Shown here one piece after another: positions 1 through 29,423 of a DNA stretch of 34,184 nt. Made by a program: the position numbers and the translations under genes. Each line of letters begins with the position of its first letter. Position 1 is the stretch's first letter. A model generated the notes under the pieces. It worked only from the letters and a program-made list of their open reading frames with translations, did not search any database and had not been told where the DNA came from. Source of the DNA: Acidimicrobiia bacterium (GTDB lineage Bacteria > Actinomycetota > Acidimicrobiia > Spongiisociales > JAENVV01). Location of the stretch: assembly GCA_040883295.1 (NCBI GenBank), contig JBFLKR010000048.1, positions 1-34,184 on the forward strand, read 5' to 3'.

Positions 1-185
1 ACGTCGTAGAAGTCACCGCCGATGAGATCGGCCTTTGGGACGTACCGAACGGCGATGGCGACGTCATCCCCGAGGTCCAGGTCCGTCGGTACGAGCGCCG
101 CCTCCATGGCGTCCGCGATCGCACCGTCGCGCGAGGTGGCATCCGGCTTCGCCCGTGCCGGCGGGCTCCCCACATCGTCGAGCAT
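1..185 (-). CDS. PP2C/SpoIIE-family serine phosphatase (RsbU/RsbX-like), first 61 codons only; gene continues beyond the left edge
   Basis: Not in the ORF track because there is no stop inside the window. Own minus-strand translation from ATG 185-183: MLDDVGSPPARAKPDATSRDGAIADAMEAALVPTDLDLGDDVAIAVRYVPKADLIGGDFYDV. The L.P..L....A.RY.P....GGDFYD block is the first conserved motif of SpoIIE/PP2C phosphatases. An in-frame stop at 195-197 makes ATG 185 the first possible start. Confidence 0.55.
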   Translation of the reverse strand, partial: MLDDVGSPPARAKPDATSRDGAIADAMEAALVPTDLDLGDDVAIAVRYVPKADLIGGDFYD

Positions 186-209
186 GCAGAAAGCCTACGT
201 CGCGATCGC

Positions 210-228
210 CCGGCCGCGCAGCGGCCGG
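210..228 (-). terminator. GC hairpin downstream of dps
   Basis: CCGGCCGC (210-217) gca GCGGCCGG (221-228): perfect 8-bp stem with a 3-nt loop, about 27 nt past the dps stop. No U-tract. Confidence 0.35.
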
Positions 229-255
229 TCGATCACTCGGGGTCCGGGTGCGGGG

Positions 256-828
256 TCAGTCGCGCGGATCGGCCGTGGCCGCCTGGGCGGCGGCGTCGAG
301 CTCGTCCTCGGCGCCGGCGGTCGAGAGCTCCCCGGAGGTGTTGACCAAGTGGGCCCGGATGAACCACTGTTGGAGCTCGAGGACGCCGGTCTGGGCGATG
401 AGCACGTCCTCGGTGACGGGGTCCATCTCGGCGGTTTCGCCGATCGCGGCCCGATGATCGGCGAGGATGCCGTCGTAGACGAGGTCGAGCGCCCCGAGGT
501 GGGCTTCCACCACGGCCCGGCCGAGGGCGTAGTCGTCCCACCGGCGATGCTCGGTCAGGTGGCCCGGCAGGCCGTTGGGGATGCCGCCGAGCGTGGCGAT
601 GCGTTCGGCCACCTCGTCGGACATCCGACGCACGTCGGCCACGTGCTCGTCGAGCATCTCGTGGACGGCGATGAAGCCGGGCCCGACCACGTTCCAATGG
701 ACGTGCTTGAGCGTCAGGCCGAGATCGACGAGGGAGTTGAGGCGATCCTGGAGCAGGTCGCCGACCTTGGTCGCCGTCCCCTCGTCGAGGCCGGACGGCG
801 CATAGGCAGAGTCGGTTCGGTGTGTCAT
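256..828 (-). CDS. dps: Dps, DNA-binding ferritin-like protein from starved cells
   Basis: 190-aa ORF with the Dps/ferritin-like pattern LKHVHWNVVGPGFIAVHEMLDEH...DEVAERI (ferroxidase His/Asp/Glu ligands). ATG 828 lies 9 nt downstream of a GGGTAGG -10 box. Confidence 0.9.
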   Translation of the reverse strand: MTHRTDSAYAPSGLDEGTATKVGDLLQDRLNSLVDLGLTLKHVHWNVVGPGFIAVHEMLDEHVADVRRMSDEVAERIATLGGIPNGLPGHLTEHRRWDDYALGRAVVEAHLGALDLVYDGILADHRAAIGETAEMDPVTEDVLIAQTGVLELQQWFIRAHLVNTSGELSTAGAEDELDAAAQAATADPRD

Positions 829-837
829 GTCGGCCGC

Positions 838-864
838 CTACCCGTGGTTCCGCCGGTCCAAACC
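838..864 (-). promoter_or_regulatory. SigB/SigF-class promoter P1 for dps (GGTTT-N16-GGGTAGG)
   Basis: Minus strand reads GGTTT (864-860), 16-nt spacer (859-844), GGGTAG (843-838), then G. Nine nt (837-829) separate the -10 from ATG 828, implying a leaderless or near-leaderless mRNA. Confidence 0.7.
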
Positions 865-885
865 TGCACGGTCGCGCGAGCTGCG

Positions 886-912
886 GGTTTCCGTCGCCCG
901 AACGCCGGGTAG
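886..912 (+). promoter_or_regulatory. SigB/SigF-class promoter P2 for the 938-1504 gene
   Basis: GGTTT (886-890), 16-nt spacer (891-906), GGGTAG (907-912), then G. The -10 lies 25 nt upstream of ATG 938, with GGAG at 931-934. Confidence 0.7.
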
Positions 913-937
913 GTCGCGGCCGACCCACACGGAGCAG

Positions 938-1504
938 ATGATGTACGAACGCAGCCCCTCACCCGACACCCCGCCGGTCGACGACATCGATCGCCATCCC
1001 GGCACGCCCATGACGACCCTCGGCGAGGTCCGTCGAGACCACAACCTCGTCGCGGCCTACGAGGACGCCGGCCGCGCTCGTGAGGTGATCCTCGAACTCG
1101 AGCAGGGAGGGGTCCCACCCCGCGACATCTCGCTGCTCGGTGCCTGGCCGGTCGAGCGACCGTCCGACGAGCCCGAGCGACCGCGACTGCTCGGCCGTCG
1201 GGTTGCGATCGCCGCCGGCATCGGCGCCGTGGTCTTTGGCATCGTCGGCGGGATCGTGGCCGCGGTCACCGAGGTCATCCCCCTCGTCTTCGGAGCCCTC
1301 GCCGGCGCCGGGTTCGGCGCCCTGCTCGGGGTGCCCGTGGGCTGGATGCGTGGCACCGGCATGTCCGAGGCCTGGCAGGAGACCTTCTCCGCGGACGCCG
1401 AGGGCACCGTGGCGGTGGGCGTCCACGACGACGATGCCGGCGTCATCGACGACGCCGAGCCCGTCATGGCCGCCACGAATCCCAAGGCGATGAACCGCTT
1501 CTGA
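938..1504 (+). CDS. Stress-associated membrane protein (soluble N-terminal domain plus Gly-rich transmembrane segments), function unknown
   Basis: C-terminal 188 aa of ORF 827..1504. Start moved to ATG 938 (or 941) because promoter P2 lies inside the annotated 5' extension. Hydrophobic Gly-zipper stretch: VAIAAGIGAVVFGIVGGIVAAVTEVIPLVFGALAGAGFGALLGVPVGW. Resembles general-stress (YflT-like) membrane proteins, but only by eye. Confidence 0.6.
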   Translation: MMYERSPSPDTPPVDDIDRHPGTPMTTLGEVRRDHNLVAAYEDAGRAREVILELEQGGVPPRDISLLGAWPVERPSDEPERPRLLGRRVAIAAGIGAVVFGIVGGIVAAVTEVIPLVFGALAGAGFGALLGVPVGWMRGTGMSEAWQETFSADAEGTVAVGVHDDDAGVIDDAEPVMAATNPKAMNRF

Positions 1505-1518
1505 GTCCCCGCAGACGC

Positions 1519-1558
1519 ACGACGAAGGGCCCCGGGACGTCCCGGGGCCCTTCGTCGT
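1519..1558. terminator. Perfect 40-bp palindrome, candidate bidirectional terminator between convergent genes
   Basis: ACGACGAAGGGCCCCGGGAC|GTCCCGGGGCCCTTCGTCGT. It sits between the stop at 1504 (+) and the stop at 1575 (-). Confidence 0.6.
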
Positions 1559-1574
1559 CATGGGCTGGGAGGTG

Positions 1575-1793
1575 TCAGTCCTCGCGCCGGACCACGAGCC
1601 ACACGATCAGCGCGATCACGGTTGCCAGCACCGTGCTCGCCACGGCAATCGCCCGCGGATCACTCCGCCAGCGCTCGACGGCCTCGGCGGCCTCGGCGGC
1701 GTTGCCGACCGCCGCCTCGGCAGCGTCGAGGGCCCGATTCGCCCGATCGAGGCGCTCCTCGGTCTCCCGGAGTCGTTCTGCAGTGGTGGTCAT
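1575..1793 (-). CDS. Small tail-anchored coiled-coil membrane protein (72 aa), function unknown
   Basis: MTTTAERLRETEERLDRANRALDAAEAAVGNAAEAAEAVERWRSDPRAIAVASTVLATVIALIVWLVVRRED. ATG 1793 is preceded by AGAGGAG 7 nt upstream. The longer ORF-track version (to 1949) would cover promoter P3. Confidence 0.6.
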   Translation of the reverse strand: MTTTAERLRETEERLDRANRALDAAEAAVGNAAEAAEAVERWRSDPRAIAVASTVLATVIALIVWLVVRRED

Positions 1794-1821
1794 GGACACT
1801 CCTCTTTGGATCGTGATGGCC

Positions 1822-1848
1822 CTACCCACCGAGCCGATCCGCCAAACC
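1822..1848 (-). promoter_or_regulatory. SigB/SigF-class promoter P3 for the 1575-1793 gene
   Basis: Minus strand reads GGTTT (1848-1844), 16-nt spacer (1843-1828), GGGTAG (1827-1822), then G. 28 nt to ATG 1793, including the SD. Confidence 0.7.
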
Positions 1849-2038
1849 GGTTCCCGGTCGGCGACCGGGGAGCCAGATGACGGTGGCCCTTCGCCGCTCC
1901 CTGGAACCGCCCCTCCCGCCTGCCTCCTGCGTCGGCCGGCGGGGCCCATCCACCCTTTCGGGGGGATCTCCTTCTCGTTTCCGGCTGCCGACGTCGACTT
2001 GCTTCCGGGGGAGTTCCCCCTTCTCGGAGGCAGTTCGC

Positions 2039-3091
2039 TCAGTCGATCGTGTCGCGCAGGTGCGCGAGGATGCGGCGCAGGAGCCGTGACACGTGCATCT
2101 GGGAGATGCCGACCCGCTCGGCGATCTCCGACTGGGTCAGCTCGTCGACGAAGCGCAGGCGAAGGATCGTCCGCTCTCGCTCGGGCAGCCCCGCCAGCGC
2201 GGGCCCGAGGTCGCCCAGCTGCTCCACCAGCGCCAGGTCGTCGTGCTCGTCGGCGAGGGTCTCGCCGATGCCCGAGGGCGATGGCGACCCCGGTCGCGGC
2301 GCGTCGATCGATGCCGCGGTGTAGGCCGTGGTCGCCCCGATCGCCGCCACCACCTCGTCGACGTCCATGCCGACTTCCGTGGCCACCTCGGTCGGCGAGG
2401 GGGTGCGGCCGAGCCGTTGGGCGAGATCCTCGCGAGCCCGTCCGACCTCGAGGGCCCGTTCCTGGAGACCGCGGGGCACCCGCACCGACCAGGCGCGGTC
2501 GCGTAGGAGGCGCTTCATCTCGCCGGACACGGTGGCGGCGGCGAAGCGCTCGAAGCGACCGGCTTCGGGGTCGTACCGATCCAGGGCCCGGAGCACTGCG
2601 AGGACCGCCGCCTGCTCGAGGTCGGCGTCGGCGATGCCCTTGTGCCGGTAGTGGCGGGAGATGTCGATCGCCATCGGGGCGAGCCGCCGGACGACCTCGT
2701 CGCGCGCCTCGGAATCGGTGCTCACGATGGCGAGCAGCGAATCCGTCGACTGGTCGGCCAGCGCTGCCGATGCCGACCCGGGCATCCGCACGTCGAACCA
2801 GACGGAGCCAGCGTCGTGGCCCCAGCGCAACGCGAAGCGGTCGAGGACCTCGGCGGTCAGGTCATCGGGCACCTCACCTGGCTGGATCCACACCCGGTGG
2901 GCCGTCGCCACGTCCCCCACCTCCACACGAATGCCCTCGGGGCTGCCGGCCAGCACCGTGCGGCCGACGATCTCGGAGACCAGGAGGGCCGCTGCGGCGC
3001 CTCGGACGGGGTCGAGCTCCAACTCGGCGCCGAGCCAGGCCCTGGCGGCCCGGGGGGCGTCCCGGTCGGCCGCCAGCTCGAGCGCCCTCAC
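2039..3091 (-). CDS. SigB/SigF-family (group 3) sigma-70 factor with an N-terminal RsbW-like (HATPase_c_2-like) domain fused in frame
   Basis: aa ~130-350 carry regions 2-4: DLEQAAVLAVLRALDRYDPEAGRFERFAAATVSGEMKRLLRDRAWSVRVPR; LPERERTILRLRFVDELTQSEIAERVGISQMHVSRLLRR. aa 1-102 (nt 3091-2786) follow the RsbW pattern: ...PRAARAWL...LLVSEIVGRTV...IRVEV...LDRFALRWGHDAGSVWFDV. The GTG start at 3091 overlaps the upstream stop (GTGA). Confidence 0.85.
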   Translation of the reverse strand: MRALELAADRDAPRAARAWLGAELELDPVRGAAAALLVSEIVGRTVLAGSPEGIRVEVGDVATAHRVWIQPGEVPDDLTAEVLDRFALRWGHDAGSVWFDVRMPGSASAALADQSTDSLLAIVSTDSEARDEVVRRLAPMAIDISRHYRHKGIADADLEQAAVLAVLRALDRYDPEAGRFERFAAATVSGEMKRLLRDRAWSVRVPRGLQERALEVGRAREDLAQRLGRTPSPTEVATEVGMDVDEVVAAIGATTAYTAASIDAPRPGSPSPSGIGETLADEHDDLALVEQLGDLGPALAGLPERERTILRLRFVDELTQSEIAERVGISQMHVSRLLRRILAHLRDTID

Positions 3092-3411
3092 GGGCCACCG
3101 ACTCGGATGCGGAAACCACCCGGCGTCGATTCGACGCCCGCCACCGACGAGGCGATCCGCAGGACGATGTCGTCGGGCGTGGGTGGGCGCTCGCCAACGA
3201 TCTCCACCAGGTCGGCTTCGGGAACGGTGATCACCAGCCGGCCCCCGTCCTCCCGCACGAAGGCGGTGACGAGTTCGGAGACGGCGAGCCGTGCCGAGGC
3301 GATGTCATCCTCGGTTGCCTCCCGGGATCGCAGGACGCCGGAAACGAAGGCCCGGGCCACCACCACGCCATCATCGGTGGCATCGATCTCGAGTCGGGCC
3401 GGGCCGGTCAC
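3088..3411 (-). CDS. RsbW-like anti-sigma paralogue C, degenerate (N-box Asn replaced by Ala), 107 aa
   Basis: C-terminal part of ORF 3088..3708: VTGPARLEIDATDDGVVVARAFVSGVL...ARLAVSELVTAFV...RLVITV...GGFRIRV. GTG 3411-3409 overlaps the STAS stop 3410-3408 (GTGA). The Arg-rich upstream extension is not credible coding sequence. Confidence 0.6.
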   Translation of the reverse strand: MTGPARLEIDATDDGVVVARAFVSGVLRSREATEDDIASARLAVSELVTAFVREDGGRLVITVPEADLVEIVGERPPTPDDIVLRIASSVAGVESTPGGFRIRVGGP

Positions 3412-3743
3412 TCGTCGGGCAGCTCGTCCGGTTCGTCGACGACTGGGAGCCGATCCAGCACTCCGGCGACCTCCAGCACTCGACGCACCGGACCGGGACC
3501 GCACACGAGGCCGAGTGGTCGGCCGTCCTCGGCGAGGCGTCGTCGTGCCGTGAGGAGGGACCGGAGCCCACTCGAGTCCATGAACGAGACCGACCGCAGG
3601 TCGACCGCCACCGGACCTGCGTGGGCGTCGATGGCCGCGTCGAGCGCGCCGTCGAGCGACGGAGCCGAGGCGATGTCGATCTCGCCGCTCGCCGCCACGA
3701 GGTGCCACCCACGGTGGTCGGACGTCGTCAGATGGAGGAGCAT
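3408..3743 (-). CDS. STAS-domain anti-anti-sigma factor (RsbV/SpoIIAA-like)
   Basis: MLLHLTTSDHRGWHLVAASGEIDIASAPSL...VDLRSVSFMDSSGLRSLL...GLVCGPGPVRRVLEVAGV, with the conserved phosphorylatable Ser in DSSG. Start 3743 is preferred over 3764 because the intervening codons (ATA CGA TTG) are atypical for this GC3-rich sequence. Confidence 0.85.
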   Translation of the reverse strand: MLLHLTTSDHRGWHLVAASGEIDIASAPSLDGALDAAIDAHAGPVAVDLRSVSFMDSSGLRSLLTARRRLAEDGRPLGLVCGPGPVRRVLEVAGVLDRLPVVDEPDELPDE

Positions 3744-3770
3744 GAGGTGCGCCAATCGTATCATCGGCCC

Positions 3771-4115
3771 ATGCCAGGCCCGATCCGTCTCACGGTGCCG
3801 GCCGACCCCCGGTGGCTCGGCGTCATCGACCTGGTCGTCGGCGCCGCCCCCCGATTCGTCTACGACGAGGCGGGTGTCCTCGACGACCTCGCCATCGCGG
3901 TGGGCGAGGTGGCGGCCGAGGTGGGCGCCACGGCCGGTGTCGCGGAACTCGAGGTGACCGTGGACGACGACCGGGTGGAGATCGCCGGTCGCGGCACGGA
4001 TGTGGTCTGGGAGCCGGGACCGGTGTGGGAGCGGCTCGTGCCGGGCCTGGCCGAGGTGGGGTGGGACGTCGAACCCTCGGGGATCAGGGTCTGGCTGGCG
4101 CCACTGCCAGCTTGA
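3771..4115 (+). CDS. RsbW-like paralogue B, degenerate (N-box Asn replaced by Glu), 114 aa
   Basis: Part of ORF 3291..4115 from ATG 3771: MPGPIRLTVPADPRWLGVIDLVVGAAPRFV...LAIAVGEVAAEVG...ELEVTVDDDRVEI...GIRVWL. Third codon positions are strongly G/C, as in real genes here. Confidence 0.55.
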   Translation: MPGPIRLTVPADPRWLGVIDLVVGAAPRFVYDEAGVLDDLAIAVGEVAAEVGATAGVAELEVTVDDDRVEIAGRGTDVVWEPGPVWERLVPGLAEVGWDVEPSGIRVWLAPLPA

Positions 4116-4488
4116 ACCAGGCCCGGACGTGGCCGGTCGCGGCCTCGAGGCCCCACGCATCGGCGAGGCGATCGACCAGCAGCAGGCCGAAGCCGCCGGG
4201 ATGGTCGTCCTTGCTCGGGCCCCTGACGGGGGGGCCCGTCGCGACGACCTCGACCCGGCACGTGCCGTCCTCGCTGACGATCGCGAGCAGCAGGTCCTCG
4301 CCACCTTCGAGTCCACGGTGGCGGAGGACGTTGGTCACGATCTCCGACGTCAGGATCTCGGCGACCTCGGTGATCGACCCGTCCCCGAGATGCCCGCGCA
4401 CGGCCCGACGGGCGGCAGCGGGGGCCCGATCGTCCGCCGGCAGCGTGATGGCCTCGGTGGCCGATTCCGTGGTGCCCCGGTCGGTCAT
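4084..4488 (-). CDS. RsbW/SpoIIAB-type anti-sigma factor (HATPase_c_2), paralogue A
   Basis: 134 aa. N-box intact (SEIVTNVLRH). G2-like GGFGLLLVDRLADAWG. The G1 position reads VVATGPP (Asp missing). ATG 4488 overlaps the stop of the upstream gene (ATGA). Confidence 0.8.
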   Translation of the reverse strand: MTDRGTTESATEAITLPADDRAPAAARRAVRGHLGDGSITEVAEILTSEIVTNVLRHRGLEGGEDLLLAIVSEDGTCRVEVVATGPPVRGPSKDDHPGGFGLLLVDRLADAWGLEAATGHVRAWFKLAVAPARP

Positions 4489-4988
4489 GGGCGGTCACCG
4501 TACCCGGAGTCACCGTCGTCCTCGGTGCGGAAGGAGAACACGGGCAGCCAGAACCAGGCCCAGGTCGTGAAGCCGAGTACGGCCGCGGCGACCGCCGCGG
4601 CCGGGATCACGCCGAACAGCAGCGAGGTGACGAACCAGGCGACGGCGCCGATGGCGACGGCGGCCGCCACCGTTCCGGCCAGGGCCAGGTGCACCGCGAT
4701 TCGCACGTGGCCCAGGTGCTTGCGAGGTATCCCCGTCAGCGGTGCCCGGACCCGTTGGTGCACCGAGGGGGCGATGAGCAGCACCGAGGCGGCGCCGGCG
4801 GCGGCGAACGCGACGTAGTACGACGCCCGCTGGTCGGCCGTGGCCGTCGTGAACGGACTCGACAACGGGACCGTGAGGAGGAAGGCGAAGAGGACCATCA
4901 CCCCGGGGATCGTCGTTCGGAGCCCCTCGAGCAGGGCCCGGAATCGCTGGTCGATCCCGTCGTCGGTGACGTCGTCGGAGGATCGCAT
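4485..4988 (-). CDS. DUF6328-like integral membrane protein
   Basis: 167 aa. RALLEGLRTTIPGVMVLFAFLLTVPL plus further hydrophobic helices resembles the actinobacterial DUF6328 family (from memory, not searched). ATG 4988 lies 9 nt downstream of a GGGTAGG box. Confidence 0.55.
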   Translation of the reverse strand: MRSSDDVTDDGIDQRFRALLEGLRTTIPGVMVLFAFLLTVPLSSPFTTATADQRASYYVAFAAAGAASVLLIAPSVHQRVRAPLTGIPRKHLGHVRIAVHLALAGTVAAAVAIGAVAWFVTSLLFGVIPAAAVAAAVLGFTTWAWFWLPVFSFRTEDDGDSGYGDRP

Positions 4989-4997
4989 GACGAGCGC

Positions 4998-5024
4998 CTA
5001 CCCGGGCTCGCTGCTCGCCAAACC
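4998..5024 (-). promoter_or_regulatory. SigB/SigF-class promoter P4 for the DUF6328-rsbW operon
   Basis: Minus strand reads GGTTT (5024-5020), 16-nt spacer (5019-5004), GGGTAG (5003-4998), then G. Nine nt (4997-4989) to ATG 4988, the same geometry as P1. Confidence 0.7.
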
Positions 5025-5036
5025 GGTCCGGGGCCG

Positions 5037-5063
5037 GGTTTCGTGGGCCGCGTCTGCGGGTAG
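5037..5063 (+). promoter_or_regulatory. SigB/SigF-class promoter P5 for the ferredoxin gene
   Basis: GGTTT (5037-5041), 16-nt spacer (5042-5057), GGGTAG (5058-5063), then G. 29 nt to ATG 5093. Confidence 0.7.
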
Positions 5064-5092
5064 GTGTGGGGCCACCTATCGGGGACAACCAC

Positions 5093-5419
5093 ATGAGTGA
5101 CGACACCACCACGCTGATGGTCTGGATCGACCAGGACCTCTGCACCGGCGACGGGATCTGCGAGGAGATCGCCCCCGACGTCTTCGTCGGTCGCGACGAC
5201 GGCCTCTGGGTCGTCAAGGAGGAGGCCGAGCACTTCGGCGAGACGATCGTCTTCGACGGTCGCGACGGCGATGGTCACGGTCCCGAAGGCGCCCGCGGCG
5301 TCGCCCGGGTGCCCGACGAGCTCATCGACGACACCGTCGAGGCCGCCCAGGAGTGCCCCGGCGAGTGCATCATGATCGAGCCGTACGACGCACAGCTCGT
5401 CGACGAACGCGCCGCCTGA
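5093..5419 (+). CDS. Single-cluster ferredoxin (CxxDxxC...CP type)
   Basis: MSDDTTTLMVWIDQDLCTGDGICEEIAPDVF...AAQECPGECIMIE. Start set at ATG 5093 because GTG 5066 lies only 2 nt after the P5 -10 box. Confidence 0.8.
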   Translation: MSDDTTTLMVWIDQDLCTGDGICEEIAPDVFVGRDDGLWVVKEEAEHFGETIVFDGRDGDGHGPEGARGVARVPDELIDDTVEAAQECPGECIMIEPYDAQLVDERAA

Positions 5420-5435
5420 GGAGCTCCCACGGCCC

Positions 5436-5459
5436 GGTCGGCCGGTCCGGGGGCCGACC
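5436..5459 (+). terminator. GC hairpin after the ferredoxin gene
   Basis: GGTCGGCC (5436-5443), 8-nt loop, GGCCGACC (5452-5459). Followed by tcggaattcgg. Confidence 0.3.
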
Positions 5460-5509
5460 TCGGAATTCGGGCGGCGTGACCCGCGTCCGGTCCTACCATC
5501 GCCGGTCGC

Positions 5510-7297
5510 GTGTCCGACACCTCCCCCTCCTTCTGGGCGGTGCTCCGCAAGGGTGTCCGCCTCGTCGCCGGGCTCATCGCCGCCCATCCGTGGGCCTTCG
5601 CGGTGGCCCTCTCCGGCGCGCTCGTGTACGCGGGCTCGATCATCGCCTCCAGTCGGGTCATCGGGTGGGTCACCGATGAGGTGGTGCTCGGCGTCCTCAC
5701 CGAGGGTGCCGACGACGCGATCGTCTGGACCGGGGTCTGGCTCATCGTCGGCGTCGCCGTCGTCAAGGCGGCCGGCATCGTCGCCCGCCGCATCGGGGCG
5801 GGGTGGCTCTACCTCCAGAACCGACGCGACATGCGTCGGAGGTTCGTGGCCCAGGTCCTGCGGCTCGACATGGACTGGTACAACCGCCAGGCCGTCGGCA
5901 ACCTCATCTCGATCGCCGAGGCGGACGTGGCCCAGGCCACCTCCGTCCTCAACCCACTCCCGTACGCCACCGGCTCGGCGGTGCTGCTCATCGGCGCCAC
6001 CGTCCTCGTCTTCCTCCTCGACCCGACCCTCGGGTGGATCGCCCTCGCCTTCCTCGGCACCGCCATCATCCTCGAGCTGCGTGGCGCCTACGTCACGTTC
6101 ACACTCGTCGAGGTGGTCCAGCGTCTCCGCGGCAACCTCGCCGCCGGCGCCCACGAGTCGTTCGACGGCGCCCTGACCGTCAAGGCCTTCGGCCGGGAGG
6201 ACTGGGAGTCCGAGCGCTTCGAGGCATCCTCGGCGGTGCTGCGTGACCACCTCATCGGGCTCGGCCGGGTCTGGGAGAACTTCAAGGCGCTCGTGGAGGG
6301 CATCCCGACCGTTGCCCAGGTCGTGATCGTCACCGTCGGGGTGCTGCGGGTCGCCGAGGGGGCGGTGTCGGCCGGGGACATCGTCTCGATCGCCTACCTG
6401 CTCACCCTCCTCTTCTGGCCCATCCAACTCATCGGCTTCGTCATCTTCGACACCGCTGCCGCCACCGCCTCGGCCGATCGTGTGGATGCGGTGCTGACCG
6501 CCGACGAGCACGTCCGCCACGGCACCGGGCCCGCCGGCTCGCCCGACGCCGGGGCCGGGGTCGGGGCCGAGGCGGTGGGTTTCGGCTACGACGGGCTGCC
6601 GGTCCTCGCCGACGTCGACCTCGACATCCCCTCGGGCCGCATCGTGGCGGTTGTCGGGCCCACCGGATCGGGGAAGACGACACTCACCGTGCTCCTCGCG
6701 CGGCTGTGGGACCCGCGGTCGGGCTCGATCCGCCTCGACGGCCGTGATCTGCGCGACCTGGCGGCGGCCGCCCTCGCCGACGAGGTGGCCTACGTCCCCC
6801 AGGAGGCGTTCCTCTTCGACGACACCGTCCTCGGCAACCTGACGCTGGGGCTCGACGTGCCGTTCGACGAGGTGGAGGCCGCCGCCCGCCTCGCCCGAGC
6901 CCATGAGTTCGTCATGTCCCTCCCGCGCGGGTACGAGACCCGGATCGGCGAGCGGGGCGCCGCCCTCTCGGGTGGCCAGCGGCAGCGGATCGCCCTCGCC
7001 CGGGCGCTGCTCCGACGTCCTCGGCTGCTGGTGCTCGATGACGCCACCTCCGCCGTCGATCCCTCGGTCGAAGCCGAGATCCTCGGTGCCCTTCGGGAGG
7101 CCGACCTTCCCTCGACGGTGGTGGTCGTCGCCTACCGCTCCTCCACGATCGCCCTTGCCGACGAGGTCGTGTTCATGGCCGACGGCCGGGTCGTGGCCCA
7201 GGGCGGCCATGGCGAGTTGTTGGCCTCCCAACCCGGCTACGTCCGCCTGCTCACCGCCTACGAAGAGGACGCCCGTCGTCGGGAGGGTTCGCCGTGA
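5510..7297 (+). CDS. ABC exporter, fused permease/ATPase subunit 1 (degenerate catalytic residues)
   Basis: 595 aa. N-terminal TM domain. Walker A GPTGSGKTT, signature LSGGQRQRIALARALL, Walker B LLVLDDATSAVD (Asp where the catalytic Glu is expected), H-loop position reads AYRSS. GTG start. Confidence 0.9.
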   Translation: MSDTSPSFWAVLRKGVRLVAGLIAAHPWAFAVALSGALVYAGSIIASSRVIGWVTDEVVLGVLTEGADDAIVWTGVWLIVGVAVVKAAGIVARRIGAGWLYLQNRRDMRRRFVAQVLRLDMDWYNRQAVGNLISIAEADVAQATSVLNPLPYATGSAVLLIGATVLVFLLDPTLGWIALAFLGTAIILELRGAYVTFTLVEVVQRLRGNLAAGAHESFDGALTVKAFGREDWESERFEASSAVLRDHLIGLGRVWENFKALVEGIPTVAQVVIVTVGVLRVAEGAVSAGDIVSIAYLLTLLFWPIQLIGFVIFDTAAATASADRVDAVLTADEHVRHGTGPAGSPDAGAGVGAEAVGFGYDGLPVLADVDLDIPSGRIVAVVGPTGSGKTTLTVLLARLWDPRSGSIRLDGRDLRDLAAAALADEVAYVPQEAFLFDDTVLGNLTLGLDVPFDEVEAAARLARAHEFVMSLPRGYETRIGERGAALSGGQRQRIALARALLRRPRLLVLDDATSAVDPSVEAEILGALREADLPSTVVVVAYRSSTIALADEVVFMADGRVVAQGGHGELLASQPGYVRLLTAYEEDARRREGSP

Positions 7298-9048
7298 GCG
7301 AGCGGTCGGCGAGTGCCGTCGTCGTCCGGGCGATCCGGGAGGTGCCGCCGTTCCGCGTCGGTCTCGCCTTCACGCTCGTGCTCGTCCTCCTCGGCACCGG
7401 CGCCCAGGTCGTCGTGCCCATCTACCTCCAGCGGCTGACCGACGCCGGCTCGCTCGGCAGCCTCGACCCAGTCACCGTGCTCGGCCTCGGCGCCGGAGCG
7501 GCGACCTTCGTCGTGGCCGGGGTGCTGGCGTCGCGGGCGGCCCGCATCCGCCTCATGGAGGCCTCCACCCGGGGGCTCCACGTCCTGCGGACCGAGACGT
7601 TCGCCCGTCTCCACGCCCAGTCGGTGCTCGTCACCCAGGAACGCCGGCGGGGAGCGCTCATCGCCCGGGTCACCAACGACGTCGAGCGGGTGCAGGAGTT
7701 CATGGAGTGGGGCGGCGTGGGGCTGCTGGTCGGCTCCGCCCGGGTGGTCGTGATGCTCGGGATCATGGTGGTCTACTCGTGGCAGCTGGCGCTGCTCGTC
7801 GGCGTCGCCACGGCCGTCTACGGGGGGTTGTTGCTCGGCTTCCAGCGGGTGCTGGCCCGCGCCCACGACACGGCCCGGCTCCGGGTCGCCGATGTCATGG
7901 CGACCACCGGCGAGGCGATCTCGGGCCTGCCGATCGTTCGAACCCACGGGGCCGAGCGCCACACGCTCCGCAAGCTCGACCGGGCCCTCTTCCGGGAGTT
8001 CCGAGCCGACTTCCGGGCTGCGGTGCTGGGCAACGTGCTGTTCGCCACCGCCGAGGCGTACGCCGGCGGGATCACGGCCGGGGTGCTGGCGTTCGGGATC
8101 TGGCTCGGCCTGGCCGGCGAGGTGACCGCGGGCGTGTTGGTGGCCTTCTTCTTCCTCGTGGCGCTTCTGGTGGAGCCGGTCCAGACGATGGTGGAGACCC
8201 TCGACCCGGCCCAGGCCGCCGGGGCGGGCCTCCGGCGGATCTTCGAGGTGCACGACGAGCCGATCGAGGTGGCCGACCCGGGCCCCGGCGGCACGCCGCT
8301 GCCACCGGGCCGTCTCGGCCTCGAGTTGGTCGACCTCGGCTACACCTACCCGGACGGGACCGAGGCGGTCGCCGGGGTGACACTGACGGTGGCGCCGGGC
8401 GAGCGGGTGGCGATCGTCGGCGAGACCGGGTCGGGGAAGACGACGTTCGCCAAGCTCGCCGCCCGCATCCTCGAGCGGGACTCGGGCGACTTCCACATCG
8501 GCGGGGTGCCGATCGACCGGATCCCGTTCGCGTCGCTCCGTCGTCGGGTCACCTACGTGCCCCAGGAGGGGTTCCTCCACGACGACACGATCGAGGGCAA
8601 CGTCCGCTACGGCCGGCTCGATGCCACCCGCGCCGAGGTGGAGGCGGCGTTCGCCGACCTCGGCCTCGCGGAGTGGGTGGCGAGCCTTCCCGAAGGACTC
8701 GACACCCGGGTGGGGGAGCGGGGCGGCCGCCTCTCGGCGGGGGAGCGCCAGCTCGTCGCGCTGGTGCGGGCCTCCATCGCCGATCCCGACCTGCTCGTCC
8801 TCGACGAGGCGACCTCCTCGGTCGATCCCGCCCTCGAGGTGGGGCTCCGCCGGGCCCTCGAGGTGCTGCTGGCCGGGCGCACGAGCCTCACCATCGCCCA
8901 CCGGCTCTCGACCGCCGAGGCCGCCGACCGGGTGCTCGTGTTCGACGGGGGGCGGATCGTCGAGGACGGGACCCACGCCGAACTGGTCGCCACCGGGGGC
9001 GTCTACGCCGGGCTGCACGCCGATTGGATCCGGGGCACCCGGACCTGA
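7294..9048 (+). CDS. ABC exporter, fused permease/ATPase subunit 2 (degenerate signature)
   Basis: 584 aa. Walker A GETGSGKTT, signature LSAGERQLVALVRASI, Walker B LLVLDEATSSVD, H-loop IAHRLST. GTGA overlap with subunit 1. Confidence 0.9.
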   Translation: MSERSASAVVVRAIREVPPFRVGLAFTLVLVLLGTGAQVVVPIYLQRLTDAGSLGSLDPVTVLGLGAGAATFVVAGVLASRAARIRLMEASTRGLHVLRTETFARLHAQSVLVTQERRRGALIARVTNDVERVQEFMEWGGVGLLVGSARVVVMLGIMVVYSWQLALLVGVATAVYGGLLLGFQRVLARAHDTARLRVADVMATTGEAISGLPIVRTHGAERHTLRKLDRALFREFRADFRAAVLGNVLFATAEAYAGGITAGVLAFGIWLGLAGEVTAGVLVAFFFLVALLVEPVQTMVETLDPAQAAGAGLRRIFEVHDEPIEVADPGPGGTPLPPGRLGLELVDLGYTYPDGTEAVAGVTLTVAPGERVAIVGETGSGKTTFAKLAARILERDSGDFHIGGVPIDRIPFASLRRRVTYVPQEGFLHDDTIEGNVRYGRLDATRAEVEAAFADLGLAEWVASLPEGLDTRVGERGGRLSAGERQLVALVRASIADPDLLVLDEATSSVDPALEVGLRRALEVLLAGRTSLTIAHRLSTAEAADRVLVFDGGRIVEDGTHAELVATGGVYAGLHADWIRGTRT

Positions 9049-9053
9049 CACGA

Positions 9054-9104
9054 CTTCCTGTCGGGCTCACCCTCCTCTGGGAAGGCCCAGGCCGACAAGA
9101 ACGA
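9054..9104 (+). repeat. 51-nt palindromic intergenic element, copy X
   Basis: CTTCCTGTCGGGCTCACCCTCCTCTGGGAAGGCCCAGGCCGACAAGAACGA. 41/51 identical, without gaps, to 20625-20675. The arms can pair at 10/12 positions. Starts 5 nt after the stop at 9048. Confidence 0.5.
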
Positions 9105-9186
9105 TCGACGATGACCTCTCACGTCATCGAACTGGTGACGTGGGGACGGCACGATGGGGGGCGAAGCCATCGCAACGCCCGAGGTT

Positions 9187-9215
9187 TTGTACAGCATGGC
9201 CAACCCACGTACGCT
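9187..9215 (+). promoter_or_regulatory. Candidate housekeeping-type promoter of the atp operon
   Basis: TTGTAC (9187-9192), 17-nt spacer, TACGCT (9210-9215; TAnnnT). About 20 nt upstream of ATG 9235. Pattern match only. Confidence 0.3.
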
Positions 9216-9234
9216 CCCGGCCCGGAACGGAGGC

Positions 9235-9486
9235 ATGGCGAGACAAGGCACGACCAAAGAGATCGCCGAGTCCATGAAGAAGACGGACATCGGCGGCTCC
9301 TTCCTCGGCTCCATCGTCGCCGGGCTCCTGATCGGGCTGTTGCTCGATTGGTGGCTCGGTACGGAGCCCTGGTTCGTGATCGGCCTCGCGCTGCTCGGGT
9401 CATATTCCGGGTTCATGCGGGTCTGGCACTACGCCAAGGTCCAGGGAGAACTCGAGGACGAGGAACGGAGAGCACGTGGACGTTGA
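9235..9486 (+). CDS. AtpZ/AtpI-family small membrane protein preceding the atp operon
   Basis: GSFLGSIVAGLLIGLLLDWWLGTEPWFVIGLALLGSYSGFMRVW is typical of AtpZ-like proteins. Start uncertain: ATG 9235 after GGAGG, or ATG 9274. The ORF track starts at 9154. Confidence 0.6.
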   Translation: MARQGTTKEIAESMKKTDIGGSFLGSIVAGLLIGLLLDWWLGTEPWFVIGLALLGSYSGFMRVWHYAKVQGELEDEERRARGR

Positions 9487-9871
9487 GGCCAGGATCGCCC
9501 GGAACACGGTCCGCAGGGCCGCGTTCGTGGGTCCGGTCGTCGTCCTCGCCTCCTGGCTCCTCGCCGGGACCGACGGAGCCATCGCCGCCCTGGTGGGCGT
9601 CGTCGCCGTGGTGGGCAACTTCCTGCTGGCCGGCTGGATCCTGTCCGTGGCGGCCCGCATCTCCCCCGGTGCCTATCATGCCGCCGCGCTACTGGGCTTC
9701 ATCCTCCGATTCGCCCTCCTGGCAGCGACCGTGTTCGGGGTCGCCGCCTTCGTGGAGCTCGATCGGGTGACGTTCGCAATCGCAACGGTGGTCACGTACC
9801 TCGTCCTCCTGTCCTGGGAGACGGTGGCCGTGGCCCGCGGAAGGGAAAGGGAACTCGAGTGGACCACATGA
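9476..9871 (+). CDS. atpI: ATP synthase protein I (AtpI)-like membrane protein
   Basis: 131-aa hydrophobic protein with about four TM helices, in the canonical position directly before atpB. GTG start overlapping the previous gene. Confidence 0.6.
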   Translation: MDVEARIARNTVRRAAFVGPVVVLASWLLAGTDGAIAALVGVVAVVGNFLLAGWILSVAARISPGAYHAAALLGFILRFALLAATVFGVAAFVELDRVTFAIATVVTYLVLLSWETVAVARGRERELEWTT

Positions 9872-10689
9872 TCCTGGCGGTCGAGGAGTGCGACGCTGCC
9901 AACGTGGCGATGTGCACGCCGTCCGAGGTGGGGGTGCTCTTCGAGTTTCCGCCGCTCTTCCCCGACAGCGAGCTGTGGTCGTGGGTCACCCGCACCGAGG
10001 TGCTCATCCTCCTCGCCGCCATCATCCCGGTCGTGATGGTCTTCGTCGCCCTGCGCAAGCCGAAGCTGGTGCCCGGCAAGTTCCAGCTCTTCATCGAGTC
10101 GGTCTACAACTCGATCGATCAGGGCATCTCCAAGGACATCATCGGTCCCGAGGGCTCCCGCTACACCCCCTACCTGATCTCGCTGTTCGCCTTCATCTTC
10201 TTCGGGAACATCTTCGAGGTCACGCCCTTCGTCAACTTCCCGGTCACGTCCCGGATCGCCCTCCCCGCGTTCCTGGCACTCCTGACCTGGTTCATCTTCA
10301 TCATCGCCGGCATCTCCAAGCAGGGCCTGACCTACTTCGGCCACCTCATCTGGCCCCCCGGGATCCCGATCGCCCTCCGTCCGCTGGTGGGCGTCATCGA
10401 GTTCGTCTCGGTGCTGTTCGTGCGGCCGTTCTCGCTGGCGGTGCGGCTCTTCGCCAACCTCGTCGCCGGCCACACGATGCTGGCGCTGCTCCTCAGCACG
10501 GCCGGGATCTTCATCTGGGGGTTCATCCAGGGCGACCTCGGCTTCGGGAAGGCCCTCACGGGTGGGGCGTGGTTCCTGTTGGCCCTCGGGATCTACGTGT
10601 TCGAGATCCTCGTCTCGTACCTCCAGGCCTACATCTTCACGCTCCTGTCCGCCGTCTACATCGAGAGCTCGCTCCACCCCGAGCACTGA
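9859..10689 (+). CDS. atpB: F0F1 ATP synthase subunit a
   Basis: Contains the essential-Arg motif SLAVRLFANLVAGH. Start is GTG 9859 or ATG 9868. Confidence 0.95.
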   Translation: MDHMILAVEECDAANVAMCTPSEVGVLFEFPPLFPDSELWSWVTRTEVLILLAAIIPVVMVFVALRKPKLVPGKFQLFIESVYNSIDQGISKDIIGPEGSRYTPYLISLFAFIFFGNIFEVTPFVNFPVTSRIALPAFLALLTWFIFIIAGISKQGLTYFGHLIWPPGIPIALRPLVGVIEFVSVLFVRPFSLAVRLFANLVAGHTMLALLLSTAGIFIWGFIQGDLGFGKALTGGAWFLLALGIYVFEILVSYLQAYIFTLLSAVYIESSLHPEH

Positions 10690-10950
<261 letters not shown>

Positions 10951-10962
10951 GAGACGCCCGTC

Positions 10963-11505
10963 ATGACGGACGTGTTCCTGTTGGCCGCCGAGGAGGGCGG
11001 GAGCGAGGGCGGGCTGTCCTTCCTGCTCCCGGCCACATCCGAGCTCGTGATGGGCATCTTCGCCTTCCTGATCGTCTTCGCGGTCATGTGGCGCTTCGCG
11101 GTGCCCGGCATGCGACGGCTCATGGACGAGCGGCAGGCCGCCATCAGCGGCCAGATCGAGGCCGCCGAGGCCGCCCGCACCGAGGCCGACCGGCTCCGGG
11201 CGGAGTACGAGCAGCAGCTCGCCGGGGCCAAGACGGAGGCGAACGGTGTCATCGAGGAGGCCCGCGCCTCCGCCGAGACGGTCCGCGCCGACATCGTCGC
11301 CAGGGCCGAGGAGGAGGCCGCCCGGATCCGGGAGAAGGCCCAGGCCGACGCCGATGCCGAGAAGGCCCGGGTCCTCGCCGAAGCGAGGAGCGAGGTCGCC
11401 GGCCTGTCGGTCAGCCTCGCCGAGAAGGTCGTGGGTGGCTCCCTCGACGACGAGCGCCAGCGGGCCCTCGTCGAGCAGTACCTGTCCCAGCTCGAGTCGG
11501 AGTAG
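10963..11505 (+). CDS. atpF: F0F1 ATP synthase subunit b
   Basis: One N-terminal TM helix followed by a long Ala/Glu/Arg-rich helix. Position between atpE and atpH. Confidence 0.9.
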   Translation: MTDVFLLAAEEGGSEGGLSFLLPATSELVMGIFAFLIVFAVMWRFAVPGMRRLMDERQAAISGQIEAAEAARTEADRLRAEYEQQLAGAKTEANGVIEEARASAETVRADIVARAEEEAARIREKAQADADAEKARVLAEARSEVAGLSVSLAEKVVGGSLDDERQRALVEQYLSQLESE

Positions 11506-11508
11506 TCG

Positions 11509-12048
11509 ATGGCGGACGATCGCATCGCCGGCTACGCCGCGGGCATCTTCGAGATCGCCCGCGGTGAGGGCGTGGCCGCCCGTGTCGAGTCGGAGCTCTT
11601 CGCGGTCGCCCGCGCCTTCGAGTCGAATCCCGAGCTCCGTTCGACACTGTCGGATCCCCGCCTCCCGCTCGAACGCAAGCACGGCATCATCGACGACCTG
11701 CTCGAGACGCGCGCCGACGACCTGACGGTTGCCCTGGTGTCGTTCCTCGCCGACATCGGCCGCGTCGGCGACCTCGGGGAGATCTCGGCGGCGCTCTCGG
11801 ACCATGCGGCCGCCACCACCAACCGGGAGACGGCCGTCGTGCGCAGTGCCATCCCCCTCGACGAGGCCACCGTCGAGCGACTCGCCCGGGCCCTCGGCAA
11901 GGCCACCGGCAAGGTGGTCGACGTCCGGGTGGTGGTCGACCCGTCCGTCATGGGCGGCATCGTCGCCACCGTCGGCGACACGGTCATCGACGGCACCGTC
12001 CGCAGCAAGCTCGAGCAGATGCGCTCGGTCCTCACCACCAGGAGTTGA
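11509..12048 (+). CDS. atpH: F0F1 ATP synthase subunit delta (OSCP)
   Basis: 179 aa. C-terminal [28 protein letters not shown] is typical of delta/OSCP. Confidence 0.9.
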
Positions 12049-12050
12049 AC

Positions 12051-13583
12051 ATGGCAGACCTCACGATCACCACCGAGGAGATCACCGGGGCCCTCCGGTC
12101 GAACCTGGAGGGATGGAAGCCCGAGCTGTCGCGCGAGACCGTGGGCTACGTCACCTCGCTCGCCGACGGCGTCGCCCGCGTCCGTGGACTCCCCGATGTC
12201 ATGGCCTCCGAGCTGTTGGAGTTCCCCGGGGGGCTCCGGGGCGTCACCCTCAACATCGACGAGGACGACCTCGGCGTGGTCCTCATGGGCGAGTTCGAGC
12301 ACGTCGAGGAGGGTGACCCCGTCCGCCAGACCGGTGAGGTCCTCTCCGTGCCGGTCGGCGATGCGATGCTGGGTCGGGTCATCGACCCACTCGGCAACCC
12401 GATCGACGGCAAGGGTCCGATCAACACCACCGAGCGGCGGCTCCTCGAGACCCAGGCCCCGTCGGTGGTCGAGCGCCAGCCGGTCGGTCAGCCGCTCCAG
12501 ACCGGCATCAAGGCGATCGACGGGATGACGCCCATCGGTCGCGGCCAGCGCCAGCTCATCATCGGGGACCGTCAGACCGGCAAGACGGCGATCCTCGTCG
12601 ACACGATCATCAACCAGCGCAACCAGTGGGGCACCGACGACCAGGTCAAGTGCGTCTACGTCGCCATCGGCCAGAAGTCGTCGACCGTCGCCGAGGTGGT
12701 CGCGGCGCTCGAAGAGGCCGGCGCCATGGAGTACACCGTGGTGGTCAACGCCCCGGCGTCGGCGCCCGCCGCCCTGCAGATGTACGCCCCGTACGCCGGA
12801 TCGGCCATCGGCCAGCACTGGATGTACCAGGGGCAGGACGCCCTCGTGATCTTCGACGACCTGTCGAAGCAGGCGGTCGCCTACCGGGAGATCTCGCTGC
12901 TGCTGCGTCGCCCCCCCGGCCGTGAGGCCTACCCGGGCGACGTGTTCTACCTGCACAGTCGATTGCTCGAGCGCTGCGCCAAGCTCAGCGACGAGCTGGG
13001 AGGGGGCTCGCTCACCGGCCTGCCGGTCATCGAGACGAAGGCCAACGACGTCTCGGCGTTCATCCCGACCAACGTCATCTCGATCACCGACGGCCAGTGC
13101 TTCCTCGAGACCGACCTCTTCTACCAGGGCATCCGACCGGCCATGAACGCCGGCATCTCGGTGTCCCGAGTGGGCGGTGCCGCCCAGATCAAGGCGATGA
13201 AGAGTGTCGCCGGGTCGTTGCGACTCAACCTCGCCCAGTACCGGGAGCTCGCGGCGTTCGCCGAGTTCGGCTCGGAGCTCGACGCCACCTCGCTCGCCCA
13301 GCTCGAGCGTGGCCAGCGGGTCGTCGAGGTACTCAAGCAGCCGCAGTACCAGCCGATGCCCGTCGAGGAGCAGGTCATCTCGATCTTCGCCGTCACCGAG
13401 GGCCACATGGACGAGGTGCCGGTCGAGTCCATCCGCGCCTTCGAGCGGGGACTGCTCGAGCACGTTCGCACCCGCCATGGGCGGCTCCTCGACCACATCC
13501 GCAACACCGGCACGCTGCCCGAGGGCGACGACCTCGTCGACGCCATCACGGAGTTCAAGTCCGGCTTCCTCGCCGAGGCCTGA
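12051..13583 (+). CDS. atpA: F0F1 ATP synthase subunit alpha
   Basis: Walker [10 protein letters not shown]. Alpha-type sequence throughout. ATG 12051 with AGGAG 6 nt upstream is preferred over the TTG at 12045 used in the ORF track. Confidence 0.97.
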
Positions 13584-13586
13584 TCC

Positions 13587-15903
<2,317 letters not shown>

Positions 15904-15904
<1 letters not shown>

Positions 15905-16245
15905 TGGCCAGGAGCTTTGCCGTCGACGTCGTCTCCCCCGAGGAGAGCCTCTGGTCGGGGGAGGCCACGTTCCTCGTGGCCCGCACACCCGATGGTGAGA
16001 TCGGCATCCTGGCCGACCACGAGCCGGTCATGGCGGCCCTGGCCACCGGGGCGGTCACCGTCGACGGCGCCGACGGTGGACGAACGACGATCGCCGTCAA
16101 CGGTGGCTTCCTGCAGGTGCTCGACAACACGGTGACGCTGCTCACCGACCGCGCCGAGGTCGTCGAGGGCGATGCGGAGGCGGCCCGGGCCACCGCCGCC
16201 GAACTGGCGGCGCAGGCCGACGACAACCCGGTCGTCGAGCTCTAG
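15904..16245 (+). CDS. atpC: F0F1 ATP synthase subunit epsilon
   Basis: 113 aa. The GTG start overlaps the atpD stop by 1 nt. Last gene of the operon. Confidence 0.9.
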
Positions 16246-18706: not shown

Positions 18707-18723
18707 GGGAGCCACGCTACCGG

Positions 18724-29351: not shown

Positions 29352-29359
29352 AACGGGTC

Positions 29360-29373
29360 TGTAACCGTTTACA
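29360..29373. promoter_or_regulatory. LacI-family-type operator O4
   Basis: TGTAACCGTTTACA: full consensus match, 6 of 7 palindromic pairs. 51 nt upstream of the malE GTG 29424. Confidence 0.5.
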
Positions 29374-29423
29374 GTGGGGTCGGCCCGTAATCGGGTCCGA
29401 GCCTTTACAGGAGGAAAACAATC

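Follow-up and report, generated by a model that had tools for sequence, protein, structure and literature searches.

Candidate SigB/SigF-Class Promoters Clustered Around a Divergent Sigma Factor Gene in an Acidimicrobiia Bacterium

Gene Content of the Locus and Five Copies of a Promoter-Like Motif

The first 5.1 kb of a 34,184-nucleotide stretch of DNA from an uncultured Acidimicrobiia bacterium (contig JBFLKR010000048.1 of assembly GCA_040883295.1; the whole stretch is referred to here as the window, G+C content 70.5%) contain a gene for a sigma factor related to SigB and SigF, several genes for STAS and RsbW-like proteins, and five copies of the motif GGTTT-N16-GGGTAGG that are candidate promoters for the genes they face. 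Gene calls were based on third-position GC (GC3) together with Pfam and NCBIfam matches, and are listed with the five sites and other features of the locus in Table 1.

Table 1. Candidate promoters, predicted start sites, genes and putative -10 boxes at the sigma factor locus. Positions are those of the window; L numbers denote loci from related genomes; TSS, transcription start site.
Feature	Position	Strand	Description
P(dps)	837..864	-	-35 GGTTT 864-860, -10 GGGTAGG 843-837; 10 nt from GGGTA to ATG; ortholog L081 9950-9973
P(dps), predicted TSS	828	-	A of dps ATG; predicted leaderless mRNA; A(-11) register taken from sigmaB open complex
P(188-aa gene)	886..913	+	-35 886-890, -10 907-913; back to back with P(dps); ortholog L081 9922-9946
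P(188-aa gene), predicted TSS	~922	+	16-nt leader with GGAG
P(72-aa gene)	1821..1848	-	Predicted TSS ~1812; 19-nt leader containing AAGAGGAG; ortholog L081 9010-9034
P(DUF6328-rsbW134 operon)	4997..5024	-	Predicted TSS 4988 = A of ATG, leaderless; orthologs L081 6070-6094, L091 302-326
P(ferredoxin)	5037..5064	+	Back to back with P(DUF6328-rsbW134 operon); predicted TSS ~5073, 20-nt leader; ortholog L081 6034-6058
dps (target)	256..828	-	Pfam Ferritin, NCBIfam Dps
188-aa gene (target)	938..1504	+	No family; L081 orthologue 57% identical
72-aa gene (target)	1575..1793	-	C-terminal membrane anchor; 50% identical to L081 73-aa protein
Sigma factor gene, 350 aa	2039..3091	-	Residues 1-~110 RsbW/UsfX-like; ~126-350 SigB/SigF-type core, regions 2, 3, 4
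p107	3088..3411	-	Small degenerate RsbW-like, between STAS and sigma genes; weak NCBIfam RsbW/RsbA matches; rsbW134-like; conserved in L081, L082
STAS anti-sigma-factor antagonist gene, 111 aa	3408..3743	-	First gene of STAS-p107-sigma operon; Pfam STAS, TIGR00377 E 1.3e-18; FMDSSGL motif
ATCGTATCATC / GATGATACGAT block	3755..3765	.	In 27-bp gap between divergent p114 and STAS genes
TATCAT box (putative)	3759-3764	+	6 nt before p114 ATG; p114 mRNA would be leaderless
TACGAT box (putative)	3760-3755	-	Would serve STAS-p107-sigma operon
p114, 114-aa RsbW-like	3771..4115	+	Between rsbW134 and STAS gene, antisense; GC3 0.88
rsbW134	4084..4488	-	HATPase_c_2 anti-sigma-like; Pfam PF13581, 29.9 bits vs cut-off 27.4
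DUF6328 membrane protein gene (target)	4485..4988	-	Pfam PF19853
4Fe-4S single-cluster ferredoxin gene (target)	5093..5419	+	Pfam Fer4_15, Fer4_13

An exact search of the window for GGTTT-N16-GGGTAGG returned five matches, compared with none in 100 dinucleotide-preserving shuffles. The five copies share only the 12 specified bases, and their 16-nt spacers are unrelated to each other. The looser pattern GTTT-N14-18-GGGTA recovered the same five sites and no extra one (0.06 expected), and no further site was found in the whole 34 kb when one mismatch was allowed in the nine core bases (GTTT/GGGTA) with spacers of N15-17. Two mismatches in the 12-base pattern yielded two unrelated sites (23959 and 29356), compared with 1.0 expected. 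The signal is all-or-none, and all of it falls within the opening 5.1 kb of sequence.

A first-pass annotation of this DNA had described the five copies with their 16-nt spacer and GGGTAGG -10 element, placed all of them in intergenic positions facing genes, found no other copy in the rest of the window, and noted that they lie within 3 kb of the only sigma gene. These observations were borne out by the searches above, and the distance can be narrowed, as all five sites lie at most 2 kb from the sigma gene; a tblastn search with this sigma (2039-3091) found no second sigma-like gene in the window. The proposed identities of the downstream genes (dps, the 938-1504 gene, the 72-aa gene, DUF6328-rsbW and the ferredoxin) likewise agree with Pfam and NCBIfam. 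The coordinate ranges needed correction, since the pattern spans 28 nt and each range stopped one base early at its 3′ (GGGTAGG) end.

Geometry of the Sites and Predicted Transcripts

All five sites lie outside coding sequence, with a start codon on the same strand 10–30 nt past GGGTA, and all five combine a GTTT -35 element, a GGGTA -10 element, a spacer shorter than that of sigma-70 promoters and an orientation toward a gene. For GTTT followed by N16, the distance from G(-35) to G(-15) is 20 nt, the same as in the structure of the Staphylococcus aureus sigmaB open complex. When the A of GGGTA is placed at -11, the +1 position lands on the A of the ATG of dps and of the DUF6328-rsbW operon, and these two mRNAs are therefore predicted to be leaderless; the spacing is also kept in the related loci L081 and L082. 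The predicted leaders of the other three genes are 16–20 nt long and carry GGAG-type ribosome-binding sites. With its implied leaderless dps and DUF6328 mRNAs, the motif could also be used to correct start codons. The ferredoxin gene starts at ATG 5093 and not at GTG 5066, and in L081 the gene caller likewise starts the gene 30 nt after GGGTA.

Because four of the sites are arranged back to back, they could also be viewed as operators, in which each pair forms a long inverted repeat (CCTACCC-N16-AAACC ... GGTTT-N16-GGGTAGG) bound by a dimeric repressor or activator. Such an inverted pair occupies two of the three intergenic regions (837-913 and 4997-5064), and similar pairs recur in relatives. 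Single sites also exist, however, both at 1821-1848 and many times in relatives, and paired sites in the window and L081 are separated by anything from 3 to 21 bp (3, 11, 12 and 21), in contrast to the constant internal N16 and the constant distance to the start codon. The two-box geometry is moreover that of the solved sigmaB open complex, and no candidate regulator gene is conserved beside the sites. We consider an operator function very improbable.

Conservation of the Sites in Related Acidimicrobiia

Related loci were recovered by searching genome contigs with an alignment of the sigma factor (80 loci, mostly sigF/sigB of Mycobacterium, Streptomyces and Nocardia, with about 10 from Acidimicrobiia) and by a metagenome search with DUF6328 (5 loci); contigs carrying an identical sigma were at most 3.6 kb long, and the identical locus is present in assemblies of the sequencing runs SRR28267353-55. 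One of the loci, L081, is a 10.9-kb JGI contig that encodes a sigma factor 61% identical to that of the window and is fully syntenic with window positions 1 to ~11000, with its other proteins 34–87% identical to their window orthologues. The motif, as GTTT-N15/16-GGGTAG, was present in L081 at all five orthologous positions (ferredoxin, DUF6328, 73-aa gene, 178-aa gene and dps), and in alignments of the intergenic regions of the two loci both boxes are kept without change, in contrast to the diverged spacers and flanks. The motif was also found in loci L082, L086, L087, L088 and L089, where it precedes dps, DUF2383, DUF6328 operons, RsbW-like genes and a PP2C phosphatase gene.

Across 18 Acidimicrobiia loci (295 kb), 59 sites were counted compared with 0.53 expected, an approximately 100-fold enrichment, and most of them (48) had a 16-nt spacer, with 17 nt at 8 sites and 15 nt at the remaining 3. 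Placement was assessed in the six loci with gene coordinates, five taken from the gene caller and the window from our own annotation. Intergenic DNA makes up 8.6% of the sequence of these loci and holds 21 of their 23 sites (binomial P ~1e-20), and every one of the 23 faces a gene on the same strand. The distance from GGGTA to the start codon falls into a group of 10–11 nt (5 sites), a group of 26–34 nt (11 sites) and a range of 43–186 nt (7 sites), and from sequence the first spacing would correspond to a leaderless transcript and the second to a leader with a Shine-Dalgarno sequence. Sites are densest near the sigma gene, with ~6 per 10 kb in the nearest 2.5 kb, and thin out to ~1 per 10 kb at a distance of 7.5–10 kb. 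The base following GGGTA is more variable, with GGGTAGG in the window and L081 and mixed bases in more distant relatives.

The enrichment and the conservation also bear on whether the five sites could have arisen by chance or through the copying of a small element, repeated or mobile. Nothing beyond the 12 identical bases speaks for such an origin, and it is opposed by the shuffled windows, by the lack of similarity between spacers and between flanks, by the excess of sites in Acidimicrobiia loci and by the retention of the sites at orthologous positions in a locus as diverged as L081, so that we give it practically no credence.

In relatives, the genes led by the motif include those for CsbD, long hibernation-promoting factor (HPF), YtxH-BON, Transgly_assoc, PRC barrel, DUF7218-Rho_N, Dps and RsbW-like proteins. 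This set resembles the classical general-stress repertoire of SigB and SigF. The regulon of Bacillus subtilis SigB includes csbD, the hibernation-factor gene yvyD, ytxH, dps and yflT; in the relatives examined here, the motif is followed by homologues of genes of that regulon. L002, a metagenome-assembled genome (MAG) of Acidimicrobiia (DATKCE010000017.1), carries 17 GTTT-N15-17-GGGTA sites in 21 kb (2356-18729), with ~0.1 expected; nearly all of these are intergenic, a Shine-Dalgarno sequence with a start codon comes after most of them, and the genes behind them encode CsbD, HPF, PRC barrel, DUF7218-Rho_N, Dps and RsbW-like proteins. The L002 locus appears as an unusually dense ‘stress island’ around the orthologous sigma gene. 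As a positive control, many of the mycobacterial loci fetched (seven, e.g., L010, L011, L014, L030 and L049) each showed a single site 800–980 bp upstream of sigF, in line with the SigF-dependent promoter that Mycobacterium smegmatis is reported to have more than 1 kb upstream of this gene (PMC4694148).

Family and DNA-Reading Residues of the Sigma Factor

Pfam searches identified Sigma70_r2, r3 and r4 in the sigma factor and no region 1.1, with an unrelated RsbW-like domain at the N-terminus. The best NCBIfam matches were SigF (NF005514, E 1.5e-63) and SigB/SigF/SigG (TIGR02980, E 7.8e-63). The sigma core shares 43–48% identity with SigF of Mycobacterium, Rhodococcus and Nocardia and with the SigB-like sigmas of Streptomyces (45–48% for the mycobacterial proteins), and homologues at 40–60% identity are labelled as Acidimicrobiia MAGs. 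Its best solved relative is S. aureus sigmaB in the open complex (8x6g_H).

In that complex, the G(-35)TTT element is contacted by R241, S235, M237 and Q236, with R244 on the backbone, while G(-15)G(-14)G(-13) is read as double-stranded DNA by R110, R100 and R97, and the flipped A(-11) sits in a pocket formed by F79 and F86, with R74 on the backbone near the -10 element (PMC11156646). These residues were mapped through a HMMER alignment to S. aureus sigmaB, the numbering of which agrees with the published structure (PMC11156646). The -35 residues R241, S235, Q236, M237 and R244 correspond to R336, S330, Q331, M332 and R339 of the window sigma, and the GGG-reading residues R97, R100 and R110 to R194, R197 and R207; all are identical, as are F183 (F86) and R172 (R74). 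Of the nine sigmaB residues that read or touch GTTT, GGG and A(-11), the window sigma thus keeps eight. Nine of the ten identical residues (all except R339) are invariant in a 37-member family alignment, F183 being the consensus residue only.

Assignment of the Sites and Proposed Mechanism

The five sites are very probably group-3 SigB/SigF-class promoters, most likely read by RNA polymerase holoenzyme formed with the product of the sigma gene at 2039-3091. The first-pass annotation had equated the motif with the SigF/SigB promoter class; the consensus, the family of the sigma factor and the conservation in relatives all agree with that assignment, and the part that requires revision is the extended motif, since the extra G of GGTTT and the final GG of GGGTAGG represent a lineage preference and lie outside the general motif. 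The transcription start sites, the dependence of the five genes on this sigma and the regulatory logic are what we infer from these observations.

Several points weigh against this assignment. The sigma factor scores below the curated cut-offs of its families (212.2 vs 234.35 bits for TIGR02980; 214.4 vs 372 for SigF NF005514), which are nonetheless its two best families by a wide margin; by these scores it is a divergent relative of the SigB/SigF/SigG family and not a curated member. The pocket residue F79 of sigmaB is not conserved and is replaced by A177. The five start sites are predictions from sequence, and the motif counts for this genome cover only 34 kb. The operon of the sigma factor itself has no motif, and the link between sites and sigma rests on adjacency, family and co-conservation.

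The lack of a motif at the sigma operon would also fit a different reading, in which the sites are genuine SigB/F-type promoters used by a paralogous SigB/F sigma encoded elsewhere in the genome, with or without a contribution from the adjacent one. Cross-recognition of GTTT/GGGTA promoters is known from the nine SigB homologues of Streptomyces coelicolor (PMC8346170), and SigB/F-like genes without the N-terminal extension do occur in Acidimicrobiia (L016, L024, L025, L056 and L059). On the other hand, the motif clusters are centred on the N-extended sigma orthologues in all nine such loci examined and thin out with distance, the recognition residues are conserved in the window sigma, and in L001 and L002 the motif lies right before the orthologous sigma gene or operon. 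A paralogue as the reader of the sites therefore appears unlikely to us, and less improbable than an operator function.

Under the preferred assignment to the adjacent sigma factor, GTTT (-35 to -32) would be read by region 4 and the double-stranded GGG (-15 to -13) by helices from regions 2 and 3, and the A at -11 would be flipped out, with transcription beginning 11 nt downstream of it. The sigma factor would be produced from a housekeeping promoter, for which a conserved -10 box is a candidate, and would be held in check post-translationally by partner switching that involves the STAS antagonist, several RsbW-like proteins and its own RsbW-like N-domain. The STAS protein contains a DSSG motif, which is the site of the phosphorylatable serine in SpoIIAA/RsbV proteins. 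Once freed, the sigma factor would transcribe the neighbouring stress genes plus one RsbW-like gene, and co-transcription of this gene, rsbW134, with DUF6328 from the promoter at 4997-5024 could provide negative feedback. Relatives likewise carry the motif upstream of rsbW-like genes.

Control of the Sigma Operon

No motif was found upstream of the STAS-p107-sigma operon, either with one core mismatch or with two mismatches in the 12-base pattern, and direct autoregulation is therefore unsupported in this lineage. Direct autoregulation is suggested for other lineages by L001 and L002, in which a copy of the motif stands immediately ahead of the orthologous sigma gene or its operon. Read-through from the DUF6328-rsbW promoter may extend into the sigma operon of the window; such a transcript would run antisense to p114.

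The GATGATACGAT block lies in the short stretch that separates p114 from the divergently oriented STAS gene; it is conserved in the window, L081, L082 and L087 (gap of 27–38 bp) and present as a variant in L086. Judged from its sequence, the block appears to comprise two overlapping housekeeping-type -10 boxes, one for each direction. A consensus scan for sigma-70 promoters in positions 1-6000 reported no promoter-like site, and the same scan gave one weak terminator-like site at 1960-1972 (+).

A Fused Anti-Sigma-Like Domain at the N-Terminus

Residues 1 to ~110 of the sigma factor (window 2762-3091, minus strand) form a confidently predicted domain (pLDDT 90.8). This domain was modelled separately, because the Foldseek search with the full-length model was swamped by sigma matches. 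Its top structural matches were the anti-sigmaF UsfX of Mycobacterium tuberculosis (8ih8_C, 8jzt_B), RsbW of B. subtilis and SpoIIAB, with TM scores of 0.64–0.68, and its best match by sequence profile was SpoIIAB (E 0.008). A HATPase_c_2 match is precomputed for many homologues of the sigma factor, and the ATP-binding boxes of the window domain are degenerate as judged by eye. From the model, the arrangement looks like a natural fusion of an anti-sigma-like domain to a sigma factor that is conserved across Acidimicrobiia in proteins of 350–370 aa. We found no report of an RsbW-sigma fusion in the open-access literature searched, where absence is not proof.

The fused domain is a more unusual feature than the promoters, and a sigma factor with a built-in anti-sigma-like domain may merit biochemical study. 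A tentative possibility, less favoured than not, is that the RsbW/UsfX-type (pseudo-kinase) domain auto-inhibits the SigB/F core in cis, with release brought about by the STAS protein and with the three small RsbW-like proteins acting as decoys, and that the regulon is concentrated in a ‘stress island’ around the gene.

In rsbW134 the N box and G2 box were recognizable by eye and the G1 box is degenerate, while p107, p114 and the N-domain of the sigma factor are more degenerate in their ATP-binding boxes than rsbW134. The 3′ end of p114 overlaps rsbW134 by 32 nt (4084-4115), and the gene is conserved in L081 (115 aa), L082 (123 aa), L087 (124 aa) and L086 (95 aa).

Comparison With Known SigB/SigF Systems

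The motif agrees with the SigB-type consensus known from Bacillus, Staphylococcus and Streptomyces (PMC8346170; PMC11156646) and with the SigF consensus of M. smegmatis, GTTT-N14-19-GGGTA (PMC4694148). In a further parallel to the Acidimicrobiia loci, SigF promoters of M. smegmatis often lie 8–11 nt from the start codon, dps is a SigF-dependent target there, and a run of SigF-dependent genes is found beside sigF (MSMEG_1766-1804) (PMC4694148). The mycobacterial system also has multiple RsbW homologues, which divide their roles, and places rsbW genes under SigF (PMC4694148; PMC7693655). In contrast to the mycobacterial system, the bacterium studied here belongs to the class Acidimicrobiia, its spacer is fixed at 16 nt, the base after GGGTA is G (mostly T at the sigF-upstream sites of the mycobacterial loci fetched), no motif lies upstream of the sigma operon, and a conserved antisense RsbW-like gene is located between rsbW and the STAS gene. 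The fused N-domain is a further difference, as the matches to mycobacterial SigF begin near residue 130.

The GTTTWW-N~14-GGGWAW geometry of SigB promoters in B. subtilis and S. aureus is equivalent to GTTT-N16-GGGTA, and the residues that read the -35 and -10 elements are conserved (PMC11156646). In both systems a STAS antagonist and an RsbW-type protein, here a putative anti-sigma factor, are encoded beside the sigma gene. They differ in phylum, in gene order, which here is not rsbV-rsbW-sigB, and in that some transcripts are predicted to be leaderless here. Neither a PP2C phosphatase of the SpoIIE/RsbU type (among the window genes scanned) nor stressosome genes were found in the window. In the more distant relatives L082 (11082-15234 and 16887-17654) and L086 (3920-6055), a second STAS/RsbW pair and PAS-GAF-SpoIIE (PP2C) phosphatases were observed on the flanks of the sigma locus; one of the phosphatase genes is preceded by the motif, and L082 also has a heliorhodopsin gene nearby.

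Streptomyces coelicolor, like the bacterium studied here, is a high-GC actinobacterium, and its promoters of the form GTTT/GNNT ... GGGTA[T/C/G] include GGGTAG variants (PMC8346170). Its mapped start sites lie mostly ~8–10 nt after the hexamer (PMC8346170). It has many cross-recognizing paralogues and a weaker conservation of the -35 element, compared with a single adjacent sigma gene and an unusually strict motif in the window.

These comparisons indicate that a known promoter class with an adjacent, putative partner-switching module is extended here to a new lineage, and the understanding of SigB/SigF promoters as such is unchanged. The clustering of regulon genes beside the sigma gene was already known from MSMEG_1766-1804; what differs is the lineage, the strict 16-nt spacer, the preference for G after GGGTA and a sigma operon that lacks the motif. 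Neither SigB/F promoters nor such a regulon were found described for Acidimicrobiia in the open-access literature searched, where absence is again not proof. The analysis offers a sequence-level definition of a general-stress (SigB/SigF-type) promoter for an abundant and mostly uncultured class of actinobacteria, and GTTT-N16-GGGTA appears strict enough, given its enrichment, to predict the regulon directly from MAGs.

Other Features of the Window

The 188-aa protein had no Pfam family even at E <= 1. By eye, its N-terminal segment resembles YflT/general stress protein 17M, and it also has a Gly-rich membrane segment; an L089 protein that seems alike in layout (the two were not compared directly) gave a weak YflT match (E 0.0097). 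Between the convergent 188-aa and 72-aa genes, at 1521-1556, lies a perfect 16-bp GC-rich hairpin (gacgaagggccccggg acgt cccggggcccttcgtc) that resembles a bidirectional terminator without a T-tract and was missed by the consensus terminator scan. A 190-bp non-coding, C-rich stretch (1849-2038) separates the sigma stop codon from the promoter of the 72-aa gene. Its folding was no better than that of shuffled sequences (z = -0.39), and L081 lacks it, its promoter there overlapping the stop codon of the sigma gene.

Genes in the remainder of the window have housekeeping functions and include those for ABC exporters, prolyl oligopeptidase, BipA, Rpe and a sugar ABC transporter, and synteny with L081 suggests that an ATP synthase operon is also present. 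Rfam (gathering threshold) and tRNA scans of the whole window returned nothing. A palindrome, CTGTAA-CCGT-TTACAG, was noticed at 29359-29374, where it came up only as a two-mismatch match of the motif search; it is intergenic, lies upstream of the gene for the sugar-binding protein of an ABC transporter (29424-30746), and looks like an operator for a local regulator.

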